Assembly (NCBI GenBank): GCA_049319825.1
Contig: JBMORT010000009.1
Location: forward strand, 67,349-131,348
Length of the DNA: 64,000 nt
Direction of reading: 5' to 3'
Origin: Patescibacteria group bacterium
GTDB lineage: Bacteria > Patescibacteriota > Patescibacteriia > UBA11705 > DATKZF01
In this document: one piece after another, positions 2,690 to 57,172 of the stretch
How positions within the stretch are numbered: position 1 is the stretch's first letter
Layout of the letters: each line of letters starts with the position of its first letter
Translations under genes and position numbers: made by a program
The notes under the pieces: model-generated
Database searches by the model: none
What the model was told of the DNA's origin: nothing
The model's input: the letters and a program-made list of their open reading frames with translations, nothing else

Positions 2690-3625
2690 ATGAATCACAT
2701 TGATAAGATGTATAAAAAAATAGTTAACATCGAAATTCAAGGCGCCACTAACGTATGTGAAGCGGTTTTAATGACATTGAAAAAGATCGCCGCTGACCGA
2801 AAAGCCAAAGACGCGCGCGCGTTGATTAAAAAGCTGCATCAGGCAGGCCATTATTTGATCCGTGCGCGCGCGACAGAGCCGATGGCGGTCAACGCCGTCA
2901 GATTCATCGACTTTCATCTCGATCGCCATAGGGATTTGTCTGTGGCGAAACTTCGAGTGTTAATCAGTCGCGCCATCGGCAGTTTTTTATTCGATCTTTC
3001 AAATAACCGAAAAATTATCGCCGATCAAGGCGACGGATTAATACGGCGGGGCGATAATATCTTTACTCATTGTCACTCTTCGACAGTCATTGATATATTA
3101 AAACACGCCCATAAGAGCAAAAAAAAGATTCGAGTTTTCAATACGGAAACCCGGCCGCTTTTTCAGGGCCGGACGACTTCCAAGGATTTGGTAAAAGCCG
3201 GAATATCCAATACGCAGGTTGTTGATTCCGCCGGTCCGTTTTTTGTCAGCAACTTCAGCACAGGATATAACATGGATATTTTGATTTTGGGTTGCGATGC
3301 CATATCGCGTAGCGGAGATGCGGTCAATAAAATCGGATCGTTTGGATTGGCATTGGCCGCTCGGCAGTCGAACATACCGCTTTATGTCGCCACTCAATCT
3401 CTTAAGCTGGATGTGGGAGCGGCGCATTTGGAAAATTTGGAATTGGAAAAAAGGATGGCTCGAGAGGTCTGGCCGACCGCGCCCGAAGGGCTGAAAATCG
3501 TCAATTATGCCTTTGACATCATCCCGGCCGCTTACATTTCCGGTTATATTACCGAGCTGGGAATCATCCGTCCCCGGTATTTGGCGAAAAGGGTTTTCAA
3601 GAAATATAAATTTTTAAAATTATGA
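2690..3625 (+). CDS. ribose-1,5-bisphosphate isomerase (eIF-2B alpha/beta/delta-like, e2b2)
   Basis: eIF-2B-like fold by sequence; placement next to RuBisCO and AMP phosphorylase. Confidence 0.7.
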   Translation: MNHIDKMYKKIVNIEIQGATNVCEAVLMTLKKIAADRKAKDARALIKKLHQAGHYLIRARATEPMAVNAVRFIDFHLDRHRDLSVAKLRVLISRAIGSFLFDLSNNRKIIADQGDGLIRRGDNIFTHCHSSTVIDILKHAHKSKKKIRVFNTETRPLFQGRTTSKDLVKAGISNTQVVDSAGPFFVSNFSTGYNMDILILGCDAISRSGDAVNKIGSFGLALAARQSNIPLYVATQSLKLDVGAAHLENLELEKRMAREVWPTAPEGLKIVNYAFDIIPAAYISGYITELGIIRPRYLAKRVFKKYKFLKL

Positions 3626-14836: not shown

Positions 14837-16657
14837 ATGAATAATATCCGAAATGTCGCCATCATCGCCCACGTTGACCATGGCAAAACCACTCTTGTTG
14901 ATGCCTTGCTGCGTCAGGCGAAAGTCAAGCTGAGCAAGGAAATTGCGGCGGCTGATTTGATAATGGACAGCAATGATTTGGAAAAAGAGCGCGGCATTAC
15001 CATCTTTTCAAAGAACGCTTCAGTGAATTGGAATGGCACGAAGATCAATATCATTGACACGCCCGGACACGCGGACTTTGGCGGGGAAGTCGAACGCGTG
15101 CTCAATATGGCCGACGGCTGTTTGCTGTTGGTTGATGCTAAAGAAGGACCAATGCCGCAAACGCGTTTTGTGCTGAAAAAAGCTTTGGCCATGAAGCATA
15201 AAATAATTGTGGTTATAAATAAAATCGATAAACCGGATGCTCGGCCGGCTTATGTGCTGGATAAAACAATGGATTTGTTCATCGAGTTGGGAGCCGATGA
15301 TCAGGCGCTGGATTTCCCGGTCGTTTACGCTGCAGCGAAAAAAGGTCTGGCCGGCGCCCAGCCTGATTTGAAGGCCATGAAGGACATCGTGCCAATTTTC
15401 GAGGCGATCTTGAAAAACATTTCCGCGCCTGAAGGCGATGTTCAAAAACCTCTTCAAATATTAGTTTCCAATATCATCGGCGATAATTTTAAAGGCCGCA
15501 TCGCTATCGGCCGCGTCCATAACGGAGTAGTGAAGGCCGGCCAAGACATCATGCATATAAATCGTCAAGGTGAAATGAAAAAAAACCGTCTGGTGTCATT
15601 AATGACTTTTGATGGTCTATCGAGAAAGGAAGTTGATCAAGTCAGCGCCGGCGATATTGTGGCCGTGGCCGGTATTCCGGAAATCACTATCGGCGAGACT
15701 TTGGCCGACACCGCCAACCCGATAGCGTTGCCGGTTTTAAGCATTGATCAGCCGACGGTTAAAATGACTTTTATGGTCAATGATTCTCCATTTGCCGGCC
15801 AAGAAGGGCAGTATACCACGTCGCGGCAAGTGCGTGAGCGATTATATAAAGAACTGGAAAACGACATGGCGCTGAAGGTCGAAGATACCGATGACGGTAA
15901 ATGGACGGTTTCGGGCCGGGGCGAGCTTCATTTGTCAATTTTGATTGAAAGAATGCGGCGCGAAGGTTATGAATTTCAAGTATCACGGCCCCAAGTGATC
16001 AATAAAAAAGCGGATGGGAAAACATTGACTCCATTTGACCGTTTGTTTATCGAAGTCCCGGAAGCGCATTACGGATTGGTCGTTCAGAAATTAAACAGTA
16101 GAAAGGGCGAGCTCAAAGACATGAAAGTGATTGACGGCGTCGCTCACATCGAATACATCATCCCAACCAGAAGCTTATTCGGCTATCGCACCGAATTTTT
16201 AACCGATACGCGAGGCTTGGGCATCATTAATACCTCTTTTTACGATTATTTGCCCGACCCGGGAAATTGGAAGGAGCGGGAGCAGGGATCACTAGTCGCA
16301 CACGAAACCGGCACCACCAATCTTTACGGATTGGTGAATGTTCAATCGCGCGGGGTTTTGTTTTTTGGCCCCGGCGTCCCTGTTTATATGGGGCAGGTCG
16401 TCGGCCAGAATTCTCGTGGCGACGATATCCGAGTGAATGTCTGTAAGACCAAGCAACTGACCAACATGCGCTCAAAAGGAGACGGTCCGATGGAGCATTT
16501 TAACGTGCCGAAGGAAATGAGTCTGGAAGCGGCGATTGAATACATCGGCGATGACGAATTGGTGGAAGTGACGCCTGAAAACATCAGAATCAGAAAAATT
16601 TATCTCGACGAGCTGACCGCTAAAAGAGCAAGGTTTGCGGAAAAAGCGGAAGCTTGA
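14837..16657 (+). CDS. typA: translational GTPase TypA/BipA
   Basis: AHVDHGKTTL G1 motif, DTPGHADF, NKIDK; 606 aa. Confidence 0.95.
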   Translation: MNNIRNVAIIAHVDHGKTTLVDALLRQAKVKLSKEIAAADLIMDSNDLEKERGITIFSKNASVNWNGTKINIIDTPGHADFGGEVERVLNMADGCLLLVDAKEGPMPQTRFVLKKALAMKHKIIVVINKIDKPDARPAYVLDKTMDLFIELGADDQALDFPVVYAAAKKGLAGAQPDLKAMKDIVPIFEAILKNISAPEGDVQKPLQILVSNIIGDNFKGRIAIGRVHNGVVKAGQDIMHINRQGEMKKNRLVSLMTFDGLSRKEVDQVSAGDIVAVAGIPEITIGETLADTANPIALPVLSIDQPTVKMTFMVNDSPFAGQEGQYTTSRQVRERLYKELENDMALKVEDTDDGKWTVSGRGELHLSILIERMRREGYEFQVSRPQVINKKADGKTLTPFDRLFIEVPEAHYGLVVQKLNSRKGELKDMKVIDGVAHIEYIIPTRSLFGYRTEFLTDTRGLGIINTSFYDYLPDPGNWKEREQGSLVAHETGTTNLYGLVNVQSRGVLFFGPGVPVYMGQVVGQNSRGDDIRVNVCKTKQLTNMRSKGDGPMEHFNVPKEMSLEAAIEYIGDDELVEVTPENIRIRKIYLDELTAKRARFAEKAEA

Positions 16658-16689
16658 AGTACGTAGCACATAGCATGGAACATGGAGCA

Positions 16690-16742
16690 AAAATAACGCT
16701 ATCATAACGCAGAATAACGCATATATAAAGCCATATAACGCC
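16690..16742 (+). repeat. array of four ATAACGC heptamers (~10-bp period)
   Basis: aaATAACGCtatcATAACGCagaATAACGCatatataaagccatATAACGCcc; the same heptamer flanks the 4HB cassette at 56276-56775. Confidence 0.5.
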
Positions 16743-16762
16743 CATTCCGGGCGTTTTATTTT
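16737..16762 (+). terminator. rho-independent terminator after typA
   Basis: aacgccc-attcc-gggcgtt hairpin plus TTATTTT. Confidence 0.5.
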
Positions 16763-33907: not shown

Positions 33908-35170
33908 ATGCCTAAACAGGCAGACAGTAAAATCAAGCGAGTTCGGCCGCAAAAAAAACGTTCGGCCGCAAAAAAAACAGCCGCCAAGGCTGCTTTGAAG
34001 AAGTTAAAAAAGGGCCATAAAAAGCCCCATCAAAAAGTGAAGGTCGAAAGGCGCGGACGACCCAAAAAAATCGAGCCGCCATCAGAGCAATTTATCAGAC
34101 AATTAATCGATAAAGGCCGTAAGCGAGGTTTTATCACCGAGCGGGAAGTGCTTAAAGTGTTCCCGGAGCTGGAAGGCTACCTGGATTCATTTTATGGTTT
34201 TCAGGAAGAGATGGAAGCCAACGGCATCCAAATCGTTGAACTGCGAGGCGGGGTGCTGGGTGCCGATGATGAACGCGATCAAATATTATCCGGCGTGGGG
34301 CAAGGATCCAATGGCAGTCCCGTAGCTAAATACGACATCCCCGAGCTAACTGCGGATTCAATACAAATGTATCTTCGAGAGATCGGAAAGATAAAATTAT
34401 TGACGCAGGAAGAAGAACTGGCTTTAGCCAAGCGCAAGGAAAAAAGCGATCGCGAGGCGGAAAAAAGATTGATCGAGGCGAATTTGCGATTGGTTGTTTC
34501 GATCGCCAAAAAATTCGTCGGCAAAAGCTTGTCACTTTTGGATTTGATTCAGGAAGGAAACATCGGTTTGTTTCGCGCGGTGGAAAAATTTGAGTATCGC
34601 AAGGGATATAAATTTTCCACCTACGCCACCTGGTGGATCCGGCAGGCGATCACTCGCGCGCTGGCCGATCAGTCGCGAACAATTAGAATTCCGGTGCACA
34701 TGGTCGAAACCATCAATAAATTCCAGCAGATAGAAAGACGGTTGATACAAGATCTGGGCCGTGAACCACTGCCGGAAGAAATCGCCGCGGAAATGAATGA
34801 AGATCTGGACAAAATCAAATACATCATGAAAATTTCACAAGAAACGATTTCGCTGGAAACGACAGTGGGCGATGACGATGAAGATAGCACGCTTGAAGAT
34901 TTTATCGAAGATGTTAAAAATGTGTCGCCGGATCATTCGGCCGCGCTGCGTTTGCTGCGCGACTACGTGCGTGAAGTGATCAGGGAGCTGTCGCCGCGCG
35001 AACAGAAAATATTGGAAATGAGATTCGGTTTGGTTGACGGCGTATCGCACACGCTGGAAGAAGTGGGCCAGGAATTCGACGTGACTCGCGAGCGCATCAG
35101 GCAAATTGAAGCGAAAGCCTTGGAAAAAATTCAAAATATGAAAGGGATTGAAAAATTGAGAGACTATTAG
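33908..35170 (+). CDS. rpoD: RNA polymerase sigma factor RpoD (sigma-70)
   Basis: region 2 [40 protein letters not shown]; region 4 [26 protein letters not shown]. Confidence 0.95.
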
Positions 35171-50886: not shown

Positions 50887-50999
50887 CACCGCGTCGAGCG
50901 CTACTCCGGTTTGTGGAGATAGTTACCAAAACCTCGGTAAAATCGCGCTATATGCGATTTTTTTATTATAAAAGCCGAAGAGCGATCTTCGGCTATGGA

Positions 51000-51480
51000 A
51001 GTGAGAGACACGCGGGTCCGCGTTTCAAACATCCCGATCTTCGTCTCCCAAACTTGATTCAAAGGATGCGGCGGACAACGACCGGATCATTAAAGACAGC
51101 ATTTTCATCGTCCGCCGCCAGGGGTGAGGGAAAACACGCTGGCAATCGTTTGCGACACCTCGTACTTCGTTTCCCCTCTTCACGGTTTACGATCGCGGAT
51201 CGTGTAGGAACACAAAATTTTGTGTTCCTACATGCCCGGCAAAGCCGGGCCAAACCGTGAAGAGGGGCCGAAGCGAGGTGCGCTTCGGCCGGAGGCAGAC
51301 AAAGGGTCGTACGTTAAATACAACTCCCCGTCCGTCTGCCTAAAGGAATTGGGAGACACATGAACACGCGTCGTCAAACAACCCACCCCTCGTCTCCCAA
51401 ACTTCATTCAAAGGATGCGGCGGACATCTACATCTTCGTGTTGAAACAGATCAAGATTCGTCCGCCGCCTCATTTTTATA
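51000..51480. repeat. GC-rich palindrome-dense element with two direct motif-plus-hairpin copies (possible IS200/IS605-derived non-autonomous element or structured ncRNA)
   Basis: tcgtctcccaaactt[g/c]attcaaaggatgcggcggaca at about 51040 and 51396, each followed by a GCGGCGGAC...GTCCGCCGC hairpin; central 15-bp stem (cccctcttcacggttt/aaaccgtgaagagggg) encloses three perfect hairpins. Confidence 0.4.
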
Positions 51481-51547
51481 TCATAAAATAAAAAACATGT
51501 CAAGGCGGCATGCTCTTTGTATATTTAATTTTAGCGAAAATTTCGAT

Positions 51548-54218: not shown

Positions 54219-55187
54219 TCAACATATCCTCGGAATCAATTTGCCTTTCGGCTCCTCAATCCTTCTTTCCGAACCAAGCATTGTCTTCAAAAAGACACCT
54301 TCGCCCGGAGTGCATTTTCCAATAACTTTGGCTTCAGGATTAAATTCTTGAAGTTTTTTTAACGCTTCATCAGTGTTTTCCGGACTGACCGCGGCGATAA
54401 ATCGGCCTTCGGACGGTAGGGTAAATAAATCAATTCCCAAAAGCTCGGTTAAGGCGACGACTTCTTTTTTATAAGGCAACGTTTCTTCATCCAAAATAAT
54501 TTTCACTTTTGATTTGTCGGCGATTTCATTCATGTTCGCGGCCACGCCTCCGCGCGTGGGATCCTTGGCCGCGTTCAGCAGGTGCCCGACTGCCTGGAAT
54601 TCTGCCAGAAGCGGCTGGCAGTCGCTTTTTAAATCAGTTTGATAATCAAAGCGATAGGCGAGAAGCGTTAAACCATGTTCGCCCAAATCTCCTGATGTAA
54701 TGATATTATCGCCGACTTTGGCGCCGCCATTGTCTATAACTTTTTCAACCAATCCGATGCCGGCCGTGGTTATTTCTATTTTATCAAGTTTGCCTTTTTC
54801 CGTCACTTTGGTGTCGCCGGTAACGATAGGAATATTGGTGTGTTTTGAAACTTTATCAATTGATTCTGCGATTTTGAAAAGGTCTTTTTTGGCAAAGCCT
54901 TCTTCAATGACAATGCTTAAAGACAGGCCAAGCGGCTTGGCGCCCATGACGACTAAATCATTGATCGTGCCGCAAGTGGCGATTTTCCCAATATCGCCGC
55001 CCGGAAAAAATATCGGATCAACTATAAAAGCATCAGTGGTGAAAACGAGCTTTTGATTTCCCAGATCATAAATCGCGCCATCATCTTCTGTGTTGGTCCA
55101 ATTTGATTTGAGATTAATTATTTGGCGAAGCTGGCGGATAAGTTCGTTATTTTTGAATCCGCCGCCGCCGTGGTCGAGTTCGATCAT
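54219..55187 (-). CDS. hypE: hydrogenase maturation protein HypE (carbamoyl dehydratase)
   Basis: AIR-synthase-like fold; N-terminal MIELDHGGGG; C-terminal ...KGKLIPRIC with the terminal Cys. Confidence 0.9.
   Translation of the reverse strand: MIELDHGGGGFKNNELIRQLRQIINLKSNWTNTEDDGAIYDLGNQKLVFTTDAFIVDPIFFPGGDIGKIATCGTINDLVVMGAKPLGLSLSIVIEEGFAKKDLFKIAESIDKVSKHTNIPIVTGDTKVTEKGKLDKIEITTAGIGLVEKVIDNGGAKVGDNIITSGDLGEHGLTLLAYRFDYQTDLKSDCQPLLAEFQAVGHLLNAAKDPTRGGVAANMNEIADKSKVKIILDEETLPYKKEVVALTELLGIDLFTLPSEGRFIAAVSPENTDEALKKLQEFNPEAKVIGKCTPGEGVFLKTMLGSERRIEEPKGKLIPRIC
54226..54400. repeat. ~175-bp direct repeat, copy 2 (authentic hypE 3' end)
   Basis: see copy 1. Confidence 0.8.
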
Positions 55188-55198
55188 ATGAATGATTT

Positions 55199-56275
55199 CT
55201 ACCCCACTTCAGTGGGCATTTTTTTGAAGCCGACTGGAAGTCGGGCAGAATTGCGATATTTATATTCTATTTGGCAATTCCCCTCGACCGACACCATACA
55301 CGCGCCTTGAGGATTTTCCGGCGAGCAGGCCTGGGCAAAAAGGGGACAATCCTGCGGTTTTTTTAGACCTTGTAGAATTTGGCCGCAGATGCAGCCGCTT
55401 GGTTTTAACTTGATTTCTTGTTTGATTTTAGCAATTAAATCGGAATAAGTAAACTCCGCATCCTGATTTTGGAATTCAGCCTTTATTTTTAGACCGGAAG
55501 ACGGGATCAATCCCAAACCACGCCATTTGGCATCCGCGGATTCAAACACTTCATTGATAATTTTTTTCGCTTCGATATTACCTTCGGGTTTAACGACTCT
55601 TGTATATTGATTTTTAACTTGATTTTCATGGTTTAAAATCATTTCGAGCAGCCACTCGATTGAAATCAAAACATCTTCCGGCTCGAATCCGGAAATAACT
55701 TGCGGAATCTCGAACTGCTCATAAGGTTTTGATCCAATTATGGCTGATACATGGCCGGGATTGATAAAGCCATCGATTTGAATATCAGGATTTGATAGCA
55801 AAGCAGCCATGGCCGGAGGAAATAATTTATGAGCTGAATAAACCCTTAAACCCTGCTTGGCTGCCCACGCGGTCATCGGCGTAGTGGTTTCAAAACCGAT
55901 GCCAAAAAAGACTAAATCATTTATTTGTTCAGCCAATTTTAGTGCGTCCAGTGTTGAGTAGACAATCTCAATTTTCTTGCCTTGCTGCTTTAATTTTTCC
56001 AAGCTCGAATTGGTCCCCGGCAAGGATAAAGCATCGCCGTAAGCCGCGATCGGAACATCATTTTCCGCCAGACCGATTACAATGTCAATGTCAGCTTGAT
56101 CAGTGACGCAGATCGGACAGCCCGGCCCGGAAATCAGCTCGATGTTTGAGGGAAGCAAGCTTTTCAAATTATATTTCGCCACAGTCTGCGAATGCGTGCC
56201 GCAGAGTTCCATGAGTTTGACGGAGCGCGAGATTTGATTTGCCAGGGCTTTGATTGTTGTTAATATTTTTTTCAT
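55199..56275 (-). CDS. hypD: hydrogenase maturation protein HypD
   Basis: CGTH, GPGCPICV and C-terminal cysteine motifs. Confidence 0.9.
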   Translation of the reverse strand: MKKILTTIKALANQISRSVKLMELCGTHSQTVAKYNLKSLLPSNIELISGPGCPICVTDQADIDIVIGLAENDVPIAAYGDALSLPGTNSSLEKLKQQGKKIEIVYSTLDALKLAEQINDLVFFGIGFETTTPMTAWAAKQGLRVYSAHKLFPPAMAALLSNPDIQIDGFINPGHVSAIIGSKPYEQFEIPQVISGFEPEDVLISIEWLLEMILNHENQVKNQYTRVVKPEGNIEAKKIINEVFESADAKWRGLGLIPSSGLKIKAEFQNQDAEFTYSDLIAKIKQEIKLKPSGCICGQILQGLKKPQDCPLFAQACSPENPQGACMVSVEGNCQIEYKYRNSARLPVGFKKMPTEVG

Positions 56276-56775
56276 GCGTTAATTTGCGTTATACGAGTGT
56301 TATATGGCGTTATAAAGCGTTGATTTGTATTATTTGGTGGCATTTTTAAGTCTGTTTAATACAACGTTTATTAATCCATTTAAAATTGACTGGACCTTAT
56401 TTGCTTGAAACATGTAATCATCAAATGTATCTTTGTCAATATAACTGACTCTGTAACCAATATGCAGGTCATTTATAACTTCATTCAAACAACCTTTGGC
56501 GATTCCATAAAATCTTAAATTTTCTTTATAGAAATACCTGCCGAATCCTTCCGCAATGTTCGCGCCAACTCCACGCGCGCTTTCGCGCAGATGCTTTACC
56601 AAATTGTATTTTTCCGATTCGGGAAGGGTATTTGTCAATTTGTAAATCATTTCGCAAAAAACCATTGATTCTCTCCACGCATCCAGATCTTCTATATTTT
56701 GTATTTTCATAAAATTAATAACTCGTTCCAACGCAATATAACATTTAAATAACGCCAAATAACGTCAAATAACGC
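56276..56775. mobile_element. 4HB-gene cassette flanked by inverted arrays of GCGTTAT/ATAACGC heptamers, inserted between hypD and hypC
   Basis: left flank gcgttaatttGCGTTATacgagtGTTATatgGCGTTATaaaGCGTTgattt; right flank aATAACAtttaaATAACGCcaaATAACGtcaaATAACGC (reverse-complement orientation). Confidence 0.35.
56330..56710 (-). CDS. four-helix-bundle protein
   Basis: MKIQNIEDLDAWRES...LRESARGVGANIAEGFGR signature; the ORF-track N-terminal extension reads through the flank repeat. Confidence 0.7.
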   Translation of the reverse strand: MKIQNIEDLDAWRESMVFCEMIYKLTNTLPESEKYNLVKHLRESARGVGANIAEGFGRYFYKENLRFYGIAKGCLNEVINDLHIGYRVSYIDKDTFDDYMFQANKVQSILNGLINVVLNRLKNATK

Positions 56776-56985
56776 TTACATAGCATTCAACGCTTTTGTT
56801 ATTTCTTCAGCCTCATTTTTATCAATAATCTCAATCGCAAACCCCGCATGGACAATCACAAAATCACCGTTTTTTGGTTTTACTAGGCTGATATTCACCT
56901 TTTTTTTCAGGCCGTTAAAATCAACCAGCGCGGTTTGGCTGTTTTCTTCGATTGATTGGATTTTTCCGGGAATGGCTAAGCACAT
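56776..56985 (-). CDS. hypC: hydrogenase maturation chaperone HypC
   Basis: starts MCLAIPGKI (the MCLAIP HypC signature); 69 aa. Confidence 0.85.
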   Translation of the reverse strand: MCLAIPGKIQSIEENSQTALVDFNGLKKKVNISLVKPKNGDFVIVHAGFAIEIIDKNEAEEITKALNAM

Positions 56986-57172
56986 AGTAATTTAGAAGGC
57001 TTAAGGGGGTTGAGAGGCAAATGGGTAAAAAGCGGAAAGATAAAGTGGCATTTTCATTAACTGCCCTTCTTAGGCCTTTTTAGCTCTCTACCACGGGTTT
57101 GTTGATAAATATTCGTGTGTTTTTATTAAACATGCTAGAATTTTAACAGATATATTATTAACTTCAAATTTT

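Follow-up and report, generated by a model that had tools for sequence, protein, structure and literature searches.

To our knowledge, PF05635 is a very large family of four-helix-bundle (4HB) proteins with no assigned function outside diversity-generating retroelements (DGRs). Here we examined a gene of this family wedged between hypC and hypD in a Patescibacteria group bacterium, on a 64,000-nucleotide (64-kb) stretch of contig JBMORT010000009.1 (hereafter the window), together with the short tandem arrays that bracket it. The closest described systems are the rRNA intervening sequences (IVSs) of Leptospira and Coxiella that carry an S23p/PF05635 open reading frame (ORF). In Coxiella, RNase III cuts the IVS in a 28-bp stem formed by its terminal inverted repeats, and heptameric repeats, variable in number, lie just 5′ of the S23p start (PMC4990558); the link to rRNA IVSs drawn in the original prediction is therefore apt. 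Like these IVSs, the hypC-hypD cassette carries a sense ORF of the same family in the loop of a predicted hairpin stemmed by terminal inverted repeats, has short tandem repeats just 5′ of that ORF, and would rely on host transcription and be tolerated since it is structurally looped out. Unlike them, it lies in a protein-coding operon junction rather than in an rRNA helix (23S helix 9, 25, or 45, or 16S), and its arms are ~48 nt long and built from 10- to 11-nt units. We consider it probable that the cassette is an IVS-type 4HB element in an mRNA operon junction, with the PF05635 gene in the loop of a hairpin whose stem is formed by two arms of five GCGTTAT-core units each.

The 500-bp gap between hypC and hypD was wholly occupied by the 4HB ORF and its two arms (Table 1), and ORF calls bore out the original claim that a 4HB gene fills it. 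The 126-aa product of this ORF, the only one in the cassette, matched Pfam PF05635 (23S_rRNA_IVP) at 101.2 bits (E 4.7e-29, cutoff 33.8) over profile positions 1-106 of 106, and TIGR02436 at 94 bits (cutoff 24). It was 100% identical to an NCBI "four helix bundle protein" of a Patescibacteria metagenome-assembled genome. Its best solved relative was XCC0516 (PDB 2GSC; E 3.4e-18, residues 7-118); by sequence, the window 4HB protein is thus related to a pentamer of known structure. The genes neighboring the cassette were hypC, hypD, and hypE, all with full-length Pfam matches and co-oriented with the 4HB ORF, and those encoding DUF4389 and iPGM.

Each arm was composed of five units with a 7-nt core, and the arms were mutually inverted, as expected from the GCGTTAT arrays on the left and reverse-complement ATAACGC arrays on the right that had been described earlier. 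On the plus strand, the left flank reads GCGTTAA (56276), GCGTTAT (56286), GTGTTAT (56297), GCGTTAT (56307), and GCGTTGA (56317), and the right flank CCAACGC (56728), ATAACAT (56738), ATAACGC (56749), ATAACGT (56759), and ATAACGC (56769). In the coding-strand reading, five tandem units (GCGTTAT, ACGTTAT, GCGTTAT, ATGTTAT, and GCGTTGG) thus precede the 4HB ATG, and the 3′ arm runs TCAACGC, ATAACGC, ATAACAC, ATAACGC, and TTAACGC. The hypC stop TAA (56778-56776) immediately adjoined the first 5′-arm unit, and the last C of the 3′ arm adjoined the hypD ATG without a gap. G exceeded C in the 5′ arm (14 versus 5, our own count over the units), and the longest inverted repeat across the cassette was 45 nt at 76% complementarity. 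Three clusters of at least four TAACRY matches occurred in the window, compared with 0.02 clusters of at least three matches in first-order Markov simulations; the array clusters are not a chance product. Consensus scans found no promoter-like site in the 5′ arm and no coding-strand terminator-like site within the cassette, so that no promoter or terminator of its own was detected. The cassette is co-oriented with both host genes and fits exactly into the space from the hypC stop to the hypD start. Rfam gave no match for the cassette at E ≤ 1 and no rRNA match for the window, and there was no PADLOC defense-system match for the cassette.

Structural statements throughout are predictions. In the minimum free energy (MFE) fold of the entire cassette, both arrays were paired, and the predicted arm-arm pairs numbered 37 to 46, forming a stem that would enclose the 4HB ORF. 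The arms-only duplex had 37 pairs at -36.8 kcal/mol versus -19.2 ± 3.3 kcal/mol for shuffles (z -5.4), and the outermost predicted pair was between the base that follows the hypC UAA and the base that precedes the hypD AUG. Within the hyp transcript, arm pairing would extend to these two limits and loop out the 4HB ORF. By analogy with 23S rRNA IVSs, among which RNase III cleavage has been demonstrated for that of Coxiella, the arm duplex would probably be an RNase III substrate, and processing or looping would render the insertion harmless to the host operon. In such a model, pairing would set the hypC stop beside the hypD start and may keep translational coupling in place of the ancestral overlap of the two genes.

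To place the cassette within its family, a scan of species-representative genomes provided 80 further 4HB loci (~5 kb of sequence per fetched locus) from the candidate phyla radiation (CPR), Bacteroidota, Elusimicrobia, Anaerolineae, Nitrospira, and other groups; unit counts came from simple detectors and gene calls in these loci partly from our own ORF heuristics. In nearly all of them, a short tandem array lay just 5′ of the 4HB gene and its reverse complement just 3′. The unit was locus-specific, including AAGATTT/AAATCTT, GGGATTA/TAATCCC, GAGGTTAAGGTT, GGAATAT, GTAGTAA, and others, so that comparison of the flanks of other 4HB genes, as the original prediction had proposed, did not support ATAACGC as a family signature but did recover inverted arrays with other units in most. 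The median flank inverted-complementarity score was 30 for 4HB loci versus 14 for 202 control ORFs from the same loci and 14.5 for shuffles, and 70% of 81 4HB loci scored above the control 95th percentile. Among the 50 loci with clear arrays, the period was equal in both arms in 47 and was 7 in 36; the modal arm had four units and was ~30 nt long (range 2 to 15 units), with arm length remaining ~30 nt across differing periods. The upstream arm had G>C and the downstream arm C>G in 41/50 loci, and polarity was reversed in only two. All 12 of the cassettes folded had 24 to 73 long-range flank-flank pairs. Upstream and downstream neighbors were co-oriented with the 4HB gene in 68/74 and 67/76 cases, respectively (135/150 together), versus a background of 170/216, and the median gaps to these neighbors (41 and 32 nt) were taken up by the arrays. 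Cultured carriers of the pattern included Calothrix (GGGTGTA/TACACCC), Nostoc punctiforme, Riemerella, and Picosynechococcus, the last with a cmr2-4HB-cmr3 order and GAGGAGATAA/ATCTCCT arms. Hence what is conserved across the family is architecture and polarity, not the ATAACGC sequence, and a gene between inverted short-tandem arrays with the G-rich arm upstream is the norm in CPR, cyanobacteria, Bacteroidota, and other phyla.

The RNA-hairpin reading is favored by four of these features: arms that directly adjoin the host stop and start codons, the ~30-nt arm length across differing periods, the strong preference for sense orientation within operons, and the strand-specific polarity, whereby one arm is C-poor and the other G-poor, each is poor in self-pairing, and the upstream arm is often Shine-Dalgarno-like. 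Two general properties of the arrays were considered and rejected. A match between five units per arm and the pentamer held by eye in 5/5 CGTTA-type cassettes but not across the 50 loci, and G-quadruplex formation does not apply to most units (AAGATTT and GCGTTAT among them), which have no G-tracts. Two loci had unusual flanks: at L009 (2420-3000), the 3′ flank held direct copies of the 5′-arm unit (period 9) followed by inverted copies, and L074 (2400-3000) had very long CCCAATAAC arrays on both sides and an additional GGTTATTAAGTTAA array.

Short tandem arrays have been described in other bacteria, namely GGGAATC in Xanthomonas and GGGGAYT in Nostoc (PMC4692102) and TAACTGA in Beggiatoaceae and cyanobacteria (PMC4679880). 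In Xanthomonas there are 186 arrays, with 70 to 75 convergent pairs in operon junctions (PMC4692102). Supplementary Table A of Rehm et al. (PMC4692102) records ORF-less convergent 4-unit pairs, 36 to 67 nt apart, at groES-groEL, atpA-atpG, atpD-atpC, gltB-gltD, and holC-pepA, with the G-rich arm 5′ in the mRNA sense, and also four GGGAATC units 6 nt after bccP (XCC0517), over the start codon of XCC0516. These arrays typically have four units and end or begin only a few nucleotides from a gene, and their architecture and polarity match those of the cassette arms and of the ORF-less hairpins found here; the window cassette is likewise a convergent pair, at hypC-hypD, with the G-rich arm 5′. They differ in being mostly ORF-less and in having been read as G-quadruplex or translational signals, and the unit of the cassette (GCGTTAT plus spacer) is unable to form a G-quadruplex and recurs every 10 to 11 nt rather than every 7. 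Neither paper links the arrays to 4HB genes: the authors of PMC4692102 regarded them as G-quadruplex motifs of unknown role and did not mention the PF05635 family. As XCC0516 is the PF05635 protein of known crystal structure (2GSC), its array seems to be a link that the literature has missed. MacGregor's TAACTGA arrays (PMC4679880) may belong to the same phenomenon.

A PF05635 gene wedged between adjacent operon genes also has a precedent in cas operons, where 23S_rRNA_IVP genes lie between cmr3 and cmr2 and a possible Cas-associated function has been proposed (PMC3936711). This arrangement was reproduced in Picosynechococcus with inverted arrays, and the flanking arrays of the cmr 4HB genes are not described in that study. 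The DGR accessory protein Avd (PDB 4DWL), a pentameric, positively charged four-helix bundle that binds RNA (PMC10053308; 10.1101/2023.10.23.563531), is homologous to the window 4HB protein. In contrast to avd, the window gene adjoins hyp genes; no reverse transcriptase or template/variable repeats were found next to it, and there was no long direct repeat within 56200-56850. Membership of the 4HB family in the HEPN superfamily was considered and dropped, the HEPN survey (PMC3710099) mentioning neither Avd, IVS, nor S23.

The cassettes have ORF-less counterparts. Hairpins formed from the same kind of arrays occupied other operon junctions, and some, for example at L063 (4397-4476, -43.8 kcal/mol) and L080, lay between co-oriented genes and shared the unit of a nearby 4HB cassette. 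Arrays of a locus's own unit recurred elsewhere in the same ~5 kb at 11 of 54 loci, compared with 0 to 4 in permuted controls, and the 64-kb window held one solo array. In its mode of working, this arrangement recalls the REP-associated tyrosine transposases (RAYTs) and their REPINs (PMC3116915, PMC3337134), in which a single vertically inherited gene lies between inverted repeats and the repeat (repetitive extragenic palindrome, REP) is also dispersed as ORF-less hairpin doublets. RAYTs differ in being HUH tyrosine transposases with known DNA cleavage, the 4HB protein having no known catalytic motif, and REPs are imperfect palindromes rather than tandem short-unit arrays.

Taking these systems together, we put forward tentatively, as a possibility that may well not hold in full, that PF05635 proteins are the missing partner of short, mostly heptamer, arrays such as GGGAATC of Xanthomonas, GGGGAYT of Nostoc, short tandemly repeated repetitive (STRR)-like sequences, TAACTGA of Beggiatoa, and those of CPR. 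These would then be a hitherto unrecognized, phylum-spanning class of hairpin elements that settle in rRNA helices and operon junctions in sense orientation, with ORF-carrying "autonomous" and far commoner ORF-less forms, similar to RAYT/REPIN but acting at the RNA or single-strand level. In full-text searches of the open literature, subscription journals not covered, we found no paper that connects 4HB genes with inverted arrays at their flanks other than in rRNA, and no account of the architecture seen across the family, of its polarity, of the ORF-less relatives, or of the XCC0516 link. If the pattern is general, the function of PF05635 outside DGRs, the origin of rRNA IVSs (a question since the early 1990s), and the heptamer arrays would merge into a single system open to testing, in which inverted, polar short-tandem arrays bracket a gene, with nearby ORF-less versions of the same unit and turnover at operon junctions. 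The local feature is probably a 4HB element of IVS type placed at the junction of two protein-coding operon genes; the architecture across the family, its polarity, the ORF-less forms, and the XCC0516 link are what make an old puzzle experimentally approachable, and tractable hosts exist in Xanthomonas (XCC0516) and Picosynechococcus (cmr2-4HB-cmr3). Such inserts split translationally coupled gene pairs, for which the hairpin may compensate; annotators should not treat 4HB inserts as operon members, and the arrays can mislead programs that detect repeats or CRISPR.

The history of the cassette was followed in hyp relatives gathered by HypD protein search and contig look-ups; a metagenome scan with HypD yielded one distant locus at 42% identity. 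These relatives shared the synteny iPGM-DUF4389-hypC-hypD-hypE, and those with 74 to 87% identical HypD varied in junction occupancy. The overlap of hypC with hypD measures 4 nt in the outgroup L093 and 8 nt in the outgroup L094, in keeping with the earlier statement that the two genes are normally adjacent or overlapping, and the canonical junction is thus a 4- to 8-nt overlap. Comparison of hypC-hypD junctions, which the original prediction had recommended, revealed polymorphism: an ATAACGC-type cassette was present in the window, L002, and L091, the junction was a clean 13 nt in L092, 81 nt without an ORF in L090, and an unrelated GC-rich segment of ~380 nt in L089. The hypD-hypE junction was no less variable, being empty in the window and in L094 (1-nt gap), occupied by ORF-less array hairpins in L002 (106 nt) and L090 (135 nt) and by a 45-nt hairpin in L089, and filled in L091, L092, and L093 by an unrelated type of 4HB cassette, with GGAAGCT/AGCTTCC arms in L091. 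The three hypD-hypE 4HB proteins were 84 to 85% identical to one another and 21 to 27% identical to the three hypC-hypD cassette proteins (window, L002, and L091a), so that L091 carries two unrelated 4HB cassettes (1599-1907 and 3081-3491) in a single hyp operon. The hypC-hypD proteins have diverged to 66 to 67% identity yet keep the invariant residues of the family, and that of L091, shortened to 102 aa by an internal deletion and an early stop, is decaying.

Among 5.8 billion proteins, the nearest homolog of the window 4HB protein was 67% identical and was encoded at the orthologous junction, after hypC and directly before a gene for an 82% identical HypD, between GCGTTAT-type and ATAACGC-type arms. 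Because the nearest copy is only this similar and occupies the same junction, the insert is old, without sign of recent mobility; it was gained in an ancestor of a small Patescibacteria clade and has been vertically inherited since. As ATAACGC-type carriers span the clade root in the HypD tree, the simplest history would be a single gain once L093 had split off and no fewer than three later losses. The next homologs (57 to 59% identical) sit between ackA and murJ (L003 and L102), in cassettes whose arms have five units each, GTTAY and RTAAC, spaced 8 nt apart. The recurrence of the same subfamily with CGTTA-type arms at ackA-murJ agrees with the original view of a discrete cassette, and the age of the gain and the 67% identity of the nearest copy speak against the recent mobility that it also implied. 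That view of a discrete selfish cassette was therefore largely right, with the corrections that ATAACGC is not general, that the second 4HB gene of the window is also flanked, and that the insertion is old. The further suggestion that the cassette reveals how 4HB genes spread was not upheld, since no transposase, target-site duplication, or second close copy was found.

Several observations were made beside these loci. The L102 locus (Logan SRR32167788, 13-kb contig), whose ackA-4HB-murJ cassette encodes the protein 59% identical to that of the window, comes from the same sample as the window and has an identical GC content (42.9%); if it stems from the window's genome, as it may, that genome would contain two paralogous CGTTA-type cassettes. 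In L089, by tree the closest HypD relative of the window, the GC-rich segment (1619-2000) contains a 60-aa ORF without a Pfam match and is unrelated to 4HB, and a lone ATAACA just 5′ of the hypD ATG may be what is left of a lost 3′ arm. The small hypD-hypE hairpin of L089 (3030-3075) is formed by CCCCACTTTAGTGGG...CCCACTAAAGTGGGG, and in L095 (3400-3650), from the same genome, CCCACTTTTTGACGCCAAAAAGTGGG of the same hairpin family lies within an insert of ~200 nt that duplicates the typA terminator.

We weighed the hairpin reading against other explanations. Several results count against it. The whole-cassette fold had only a modest z-score (-2.36), and mismatches between the arms comprised 67 G.U versus 59 A.C, with 212 others, so there was no G.U excess and an RNA-specific wobble signature was rejected; by sequence comparison, a signature specific to RNA beyond plain complementarity does not appear to be present in the arms. 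In the hyp orthologs (window, L002, and L091; ~80% HypD identity), the 7-nt cores are kept and the spacers drift. A solo ATAACGC array is conserved in the typA 3′ untranslated region (UTR) of two genomes, and together with the kept cores this suggests sequence-specific recognition by a protein rather than mere pairing. The case for translational coupling is a geometric one, and no rnc signature was found within the 64-kb window, a result that is uninformative for the rest of the genome. An alternative that we regard as unlikely but well short of negligible is that the arrays are iterated candidate binding sites, as DNA or single-stranded RNA, for the pentameric 4HB protein or a host factor, acting in autoregulation or looping, with solo arrays as a small regulon and arm complementarity as a by-product. 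The kept cores with their drifting spacers and the lack of wobble enrichment fit this reading. The 10- to 11-nt spacing in the CGTTA subfamily, which is about one DNA helical turn, would suit such sites, as would the five units per arm of all five CGTTA-type cassettes in a family of pentamers (2GSC; PMC4990558), the recurrence of own-unit arrays near 4HB loci, the typA array kept in a relative at another copy number, and RNA binding by the homolog Avd (10.1101/2023.10.23.563531). However, most elements have period 7 without a spacer and are unfit for same-face DNA binding, five units are not general, binding data in the 4HB family are confined to DGR members, and the strict G-rich-upstream, C-rich-downstream polarity over unrelated units argues for a constraint at the single-strand level. 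The pairing model and sequence-specific protein recognition are not mutually exclusive.

Mobility as DNA would account for other parts of the pattern. If the arrays were terminal inverted repeats for a transposase or recombinase encoded elsewhere, or one working with the 4HB protein as cofactor, the 4HB gene would be cargo and the ORF-less hairpins would resemble miniature inverted-repeat transposable elements. Two junctions of the one operon vary in whether an element is present, and close relatives can carry different elements at a given junction; this is consistent with a transposon, as are the homology between the ORF-less hairpin of L090 and the sequences flanking the second 4HB gene of the window, which lies at another locus, the use of a nearby cassette's unit by the ORF-less pairs of L063 and L080, and the resemblance to RAYT genes with inverted REPs and dispersed REPINs (PMC3116915, PMC3337134). 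Nevertheless, we judge a DNA transposon improbable: no target-site duplication was visible between the occupied junctions (window, L002, and L091) and the empty one of L092 (TAA-aaagtaataaaat-ATG), no transposase was found in or beside the examined cassettes, and no near-identical second copy of the window 4HB gene exists among the proteins searched. The arms are also just ~76 to 84% complementary, with variable units, and a strong preference for sense orientation in operons is unexpected of ordinary DNA transposons. More improbable still is that nothing was inserted and the gene belongs to the hyp operon as an ordinary, lineage-specific accessory gene whose regulatory spacers are rich in repeats. 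Its retention at the same junction in three genomes, invariant residues intact despite the divergence, would fit such a role, but the same protein subfamily and arm type occur between ackA and murJ, other members lie in cmr2-cmr3, integrase, and Fe-S contexts or, as XCC0516, just 3′ of bccP, outgroup hyp operons and the sister lineage L092 lack the gene, and one copy is decaying.

Table 1. Positions of the hypC-hypD cassette, its host genes, and related features in the window
Feature	Position	Strand	Evidence or remark
hypC (69 aa), upstream host gene	56776-56985	minus	PF01455, E 1.6e-25
5′ arm of hypC-hypD cassette	56728-56775	minus	five units, 10-11-nt spacing
4HB protein gene, 126 aa (ATG 56710, stop 56330)	56330-56710	minus	PF05635/TIGR02436
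3′ arm of hypC-hypD cassette	56276-56323	minus	five units, 10-11-nt spacing
hypD (358 aa), downstream host gene	55199-56275	minus	PF01924, E 2.3e-127; aligned from residue 1 with L002 HypD
hypE	54219-55187	minus	full-length Pfam match; hypD-hypE junction 11 nt, empty
Promoter-like site 5′ of hypC, TTGAAG-16-TAAAAT with TG	57140-57167	minus	consensus scan only; likely operon promoter
Second, divergent 4HB cassette	1-470 (ORF 29-391)	plus	PF05635, E 5.8e-17, and TIGR02436
Solo ATAACGC x4 array, typA 3′ UTR	16693-16747	plus	third TAACRY cluster; no 4HB gene beside it

The second 4HB gene of the window encodes a protein only 24% identical to that of the hypC-hypD cassette. It had been described as lacking such flanks, which holds for ATAACGC; it nevertheless has inverted flanks of its own, TCGAAATACTAAACAAATTC at 8-26 and GAATTTGTTTAGAGTAT at 419-437, which were paired in the MFE fold and lie within flanking segments at 1-28 (clipped by the window edge) and 392-470. 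Its 3′ flank was 77% identical to the ORF-less hairpin at the hypD-hypE junction of L090 (3028-3162), and the 5′ arms were alike by eye. The polarity of this element is reversed, with the C-containing arm upstream.

The solo array downstream of typA has the same unit as the 3′ arm of the hypC-hypD cassette and runs into a terminator-like hairpin that extends to 16767 (AACGCCC-attcc-GGGCGTT-TTATTTT). A matching array was found in the relative L095 (3332-3385; TypA 85% identical) with two units versus four, the sequence being conserved and the copy number variable. The idea that the solo array is a collapsed cassette was rejected, since its orientation (ATAACGC, then GCGTT) is opposite to that of the cassette and there is no hairpin besides the terminator (z -1.0). 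Directly 5′ of the array, over the typA stop, the window has a heptamer-like run on the plus strand (16655-16692; AGCACAT AGCATGG AACATGG AGCAAAA), and a similar run occurs in L095 (3318-3350; ATCATGA ATCATGA AGCATGG AACATGG).

Elsewhere in the window, a perfect tandem duplication of the 19-nt unit GTTCGGCCGCAAAAAAAAC lies at 33941-33978 on the plus strand, followed by repeats with a 12-nt period at 34007-34108. A GC-rich stretch of ~600 nt between long ORFs (50900-51540) had no significant Rfam match and may be an unannotated structured RNA. It overlaps a 115-aa ORF with a GTG start (50913-51260) and contains nested perfect inverted repeats at 51173-51267, in which 16-nt arms (CCCCTCTTCACGGTTT/AAACCGTGAAGAGGGG) surround an 18-nt perfect palindrome.

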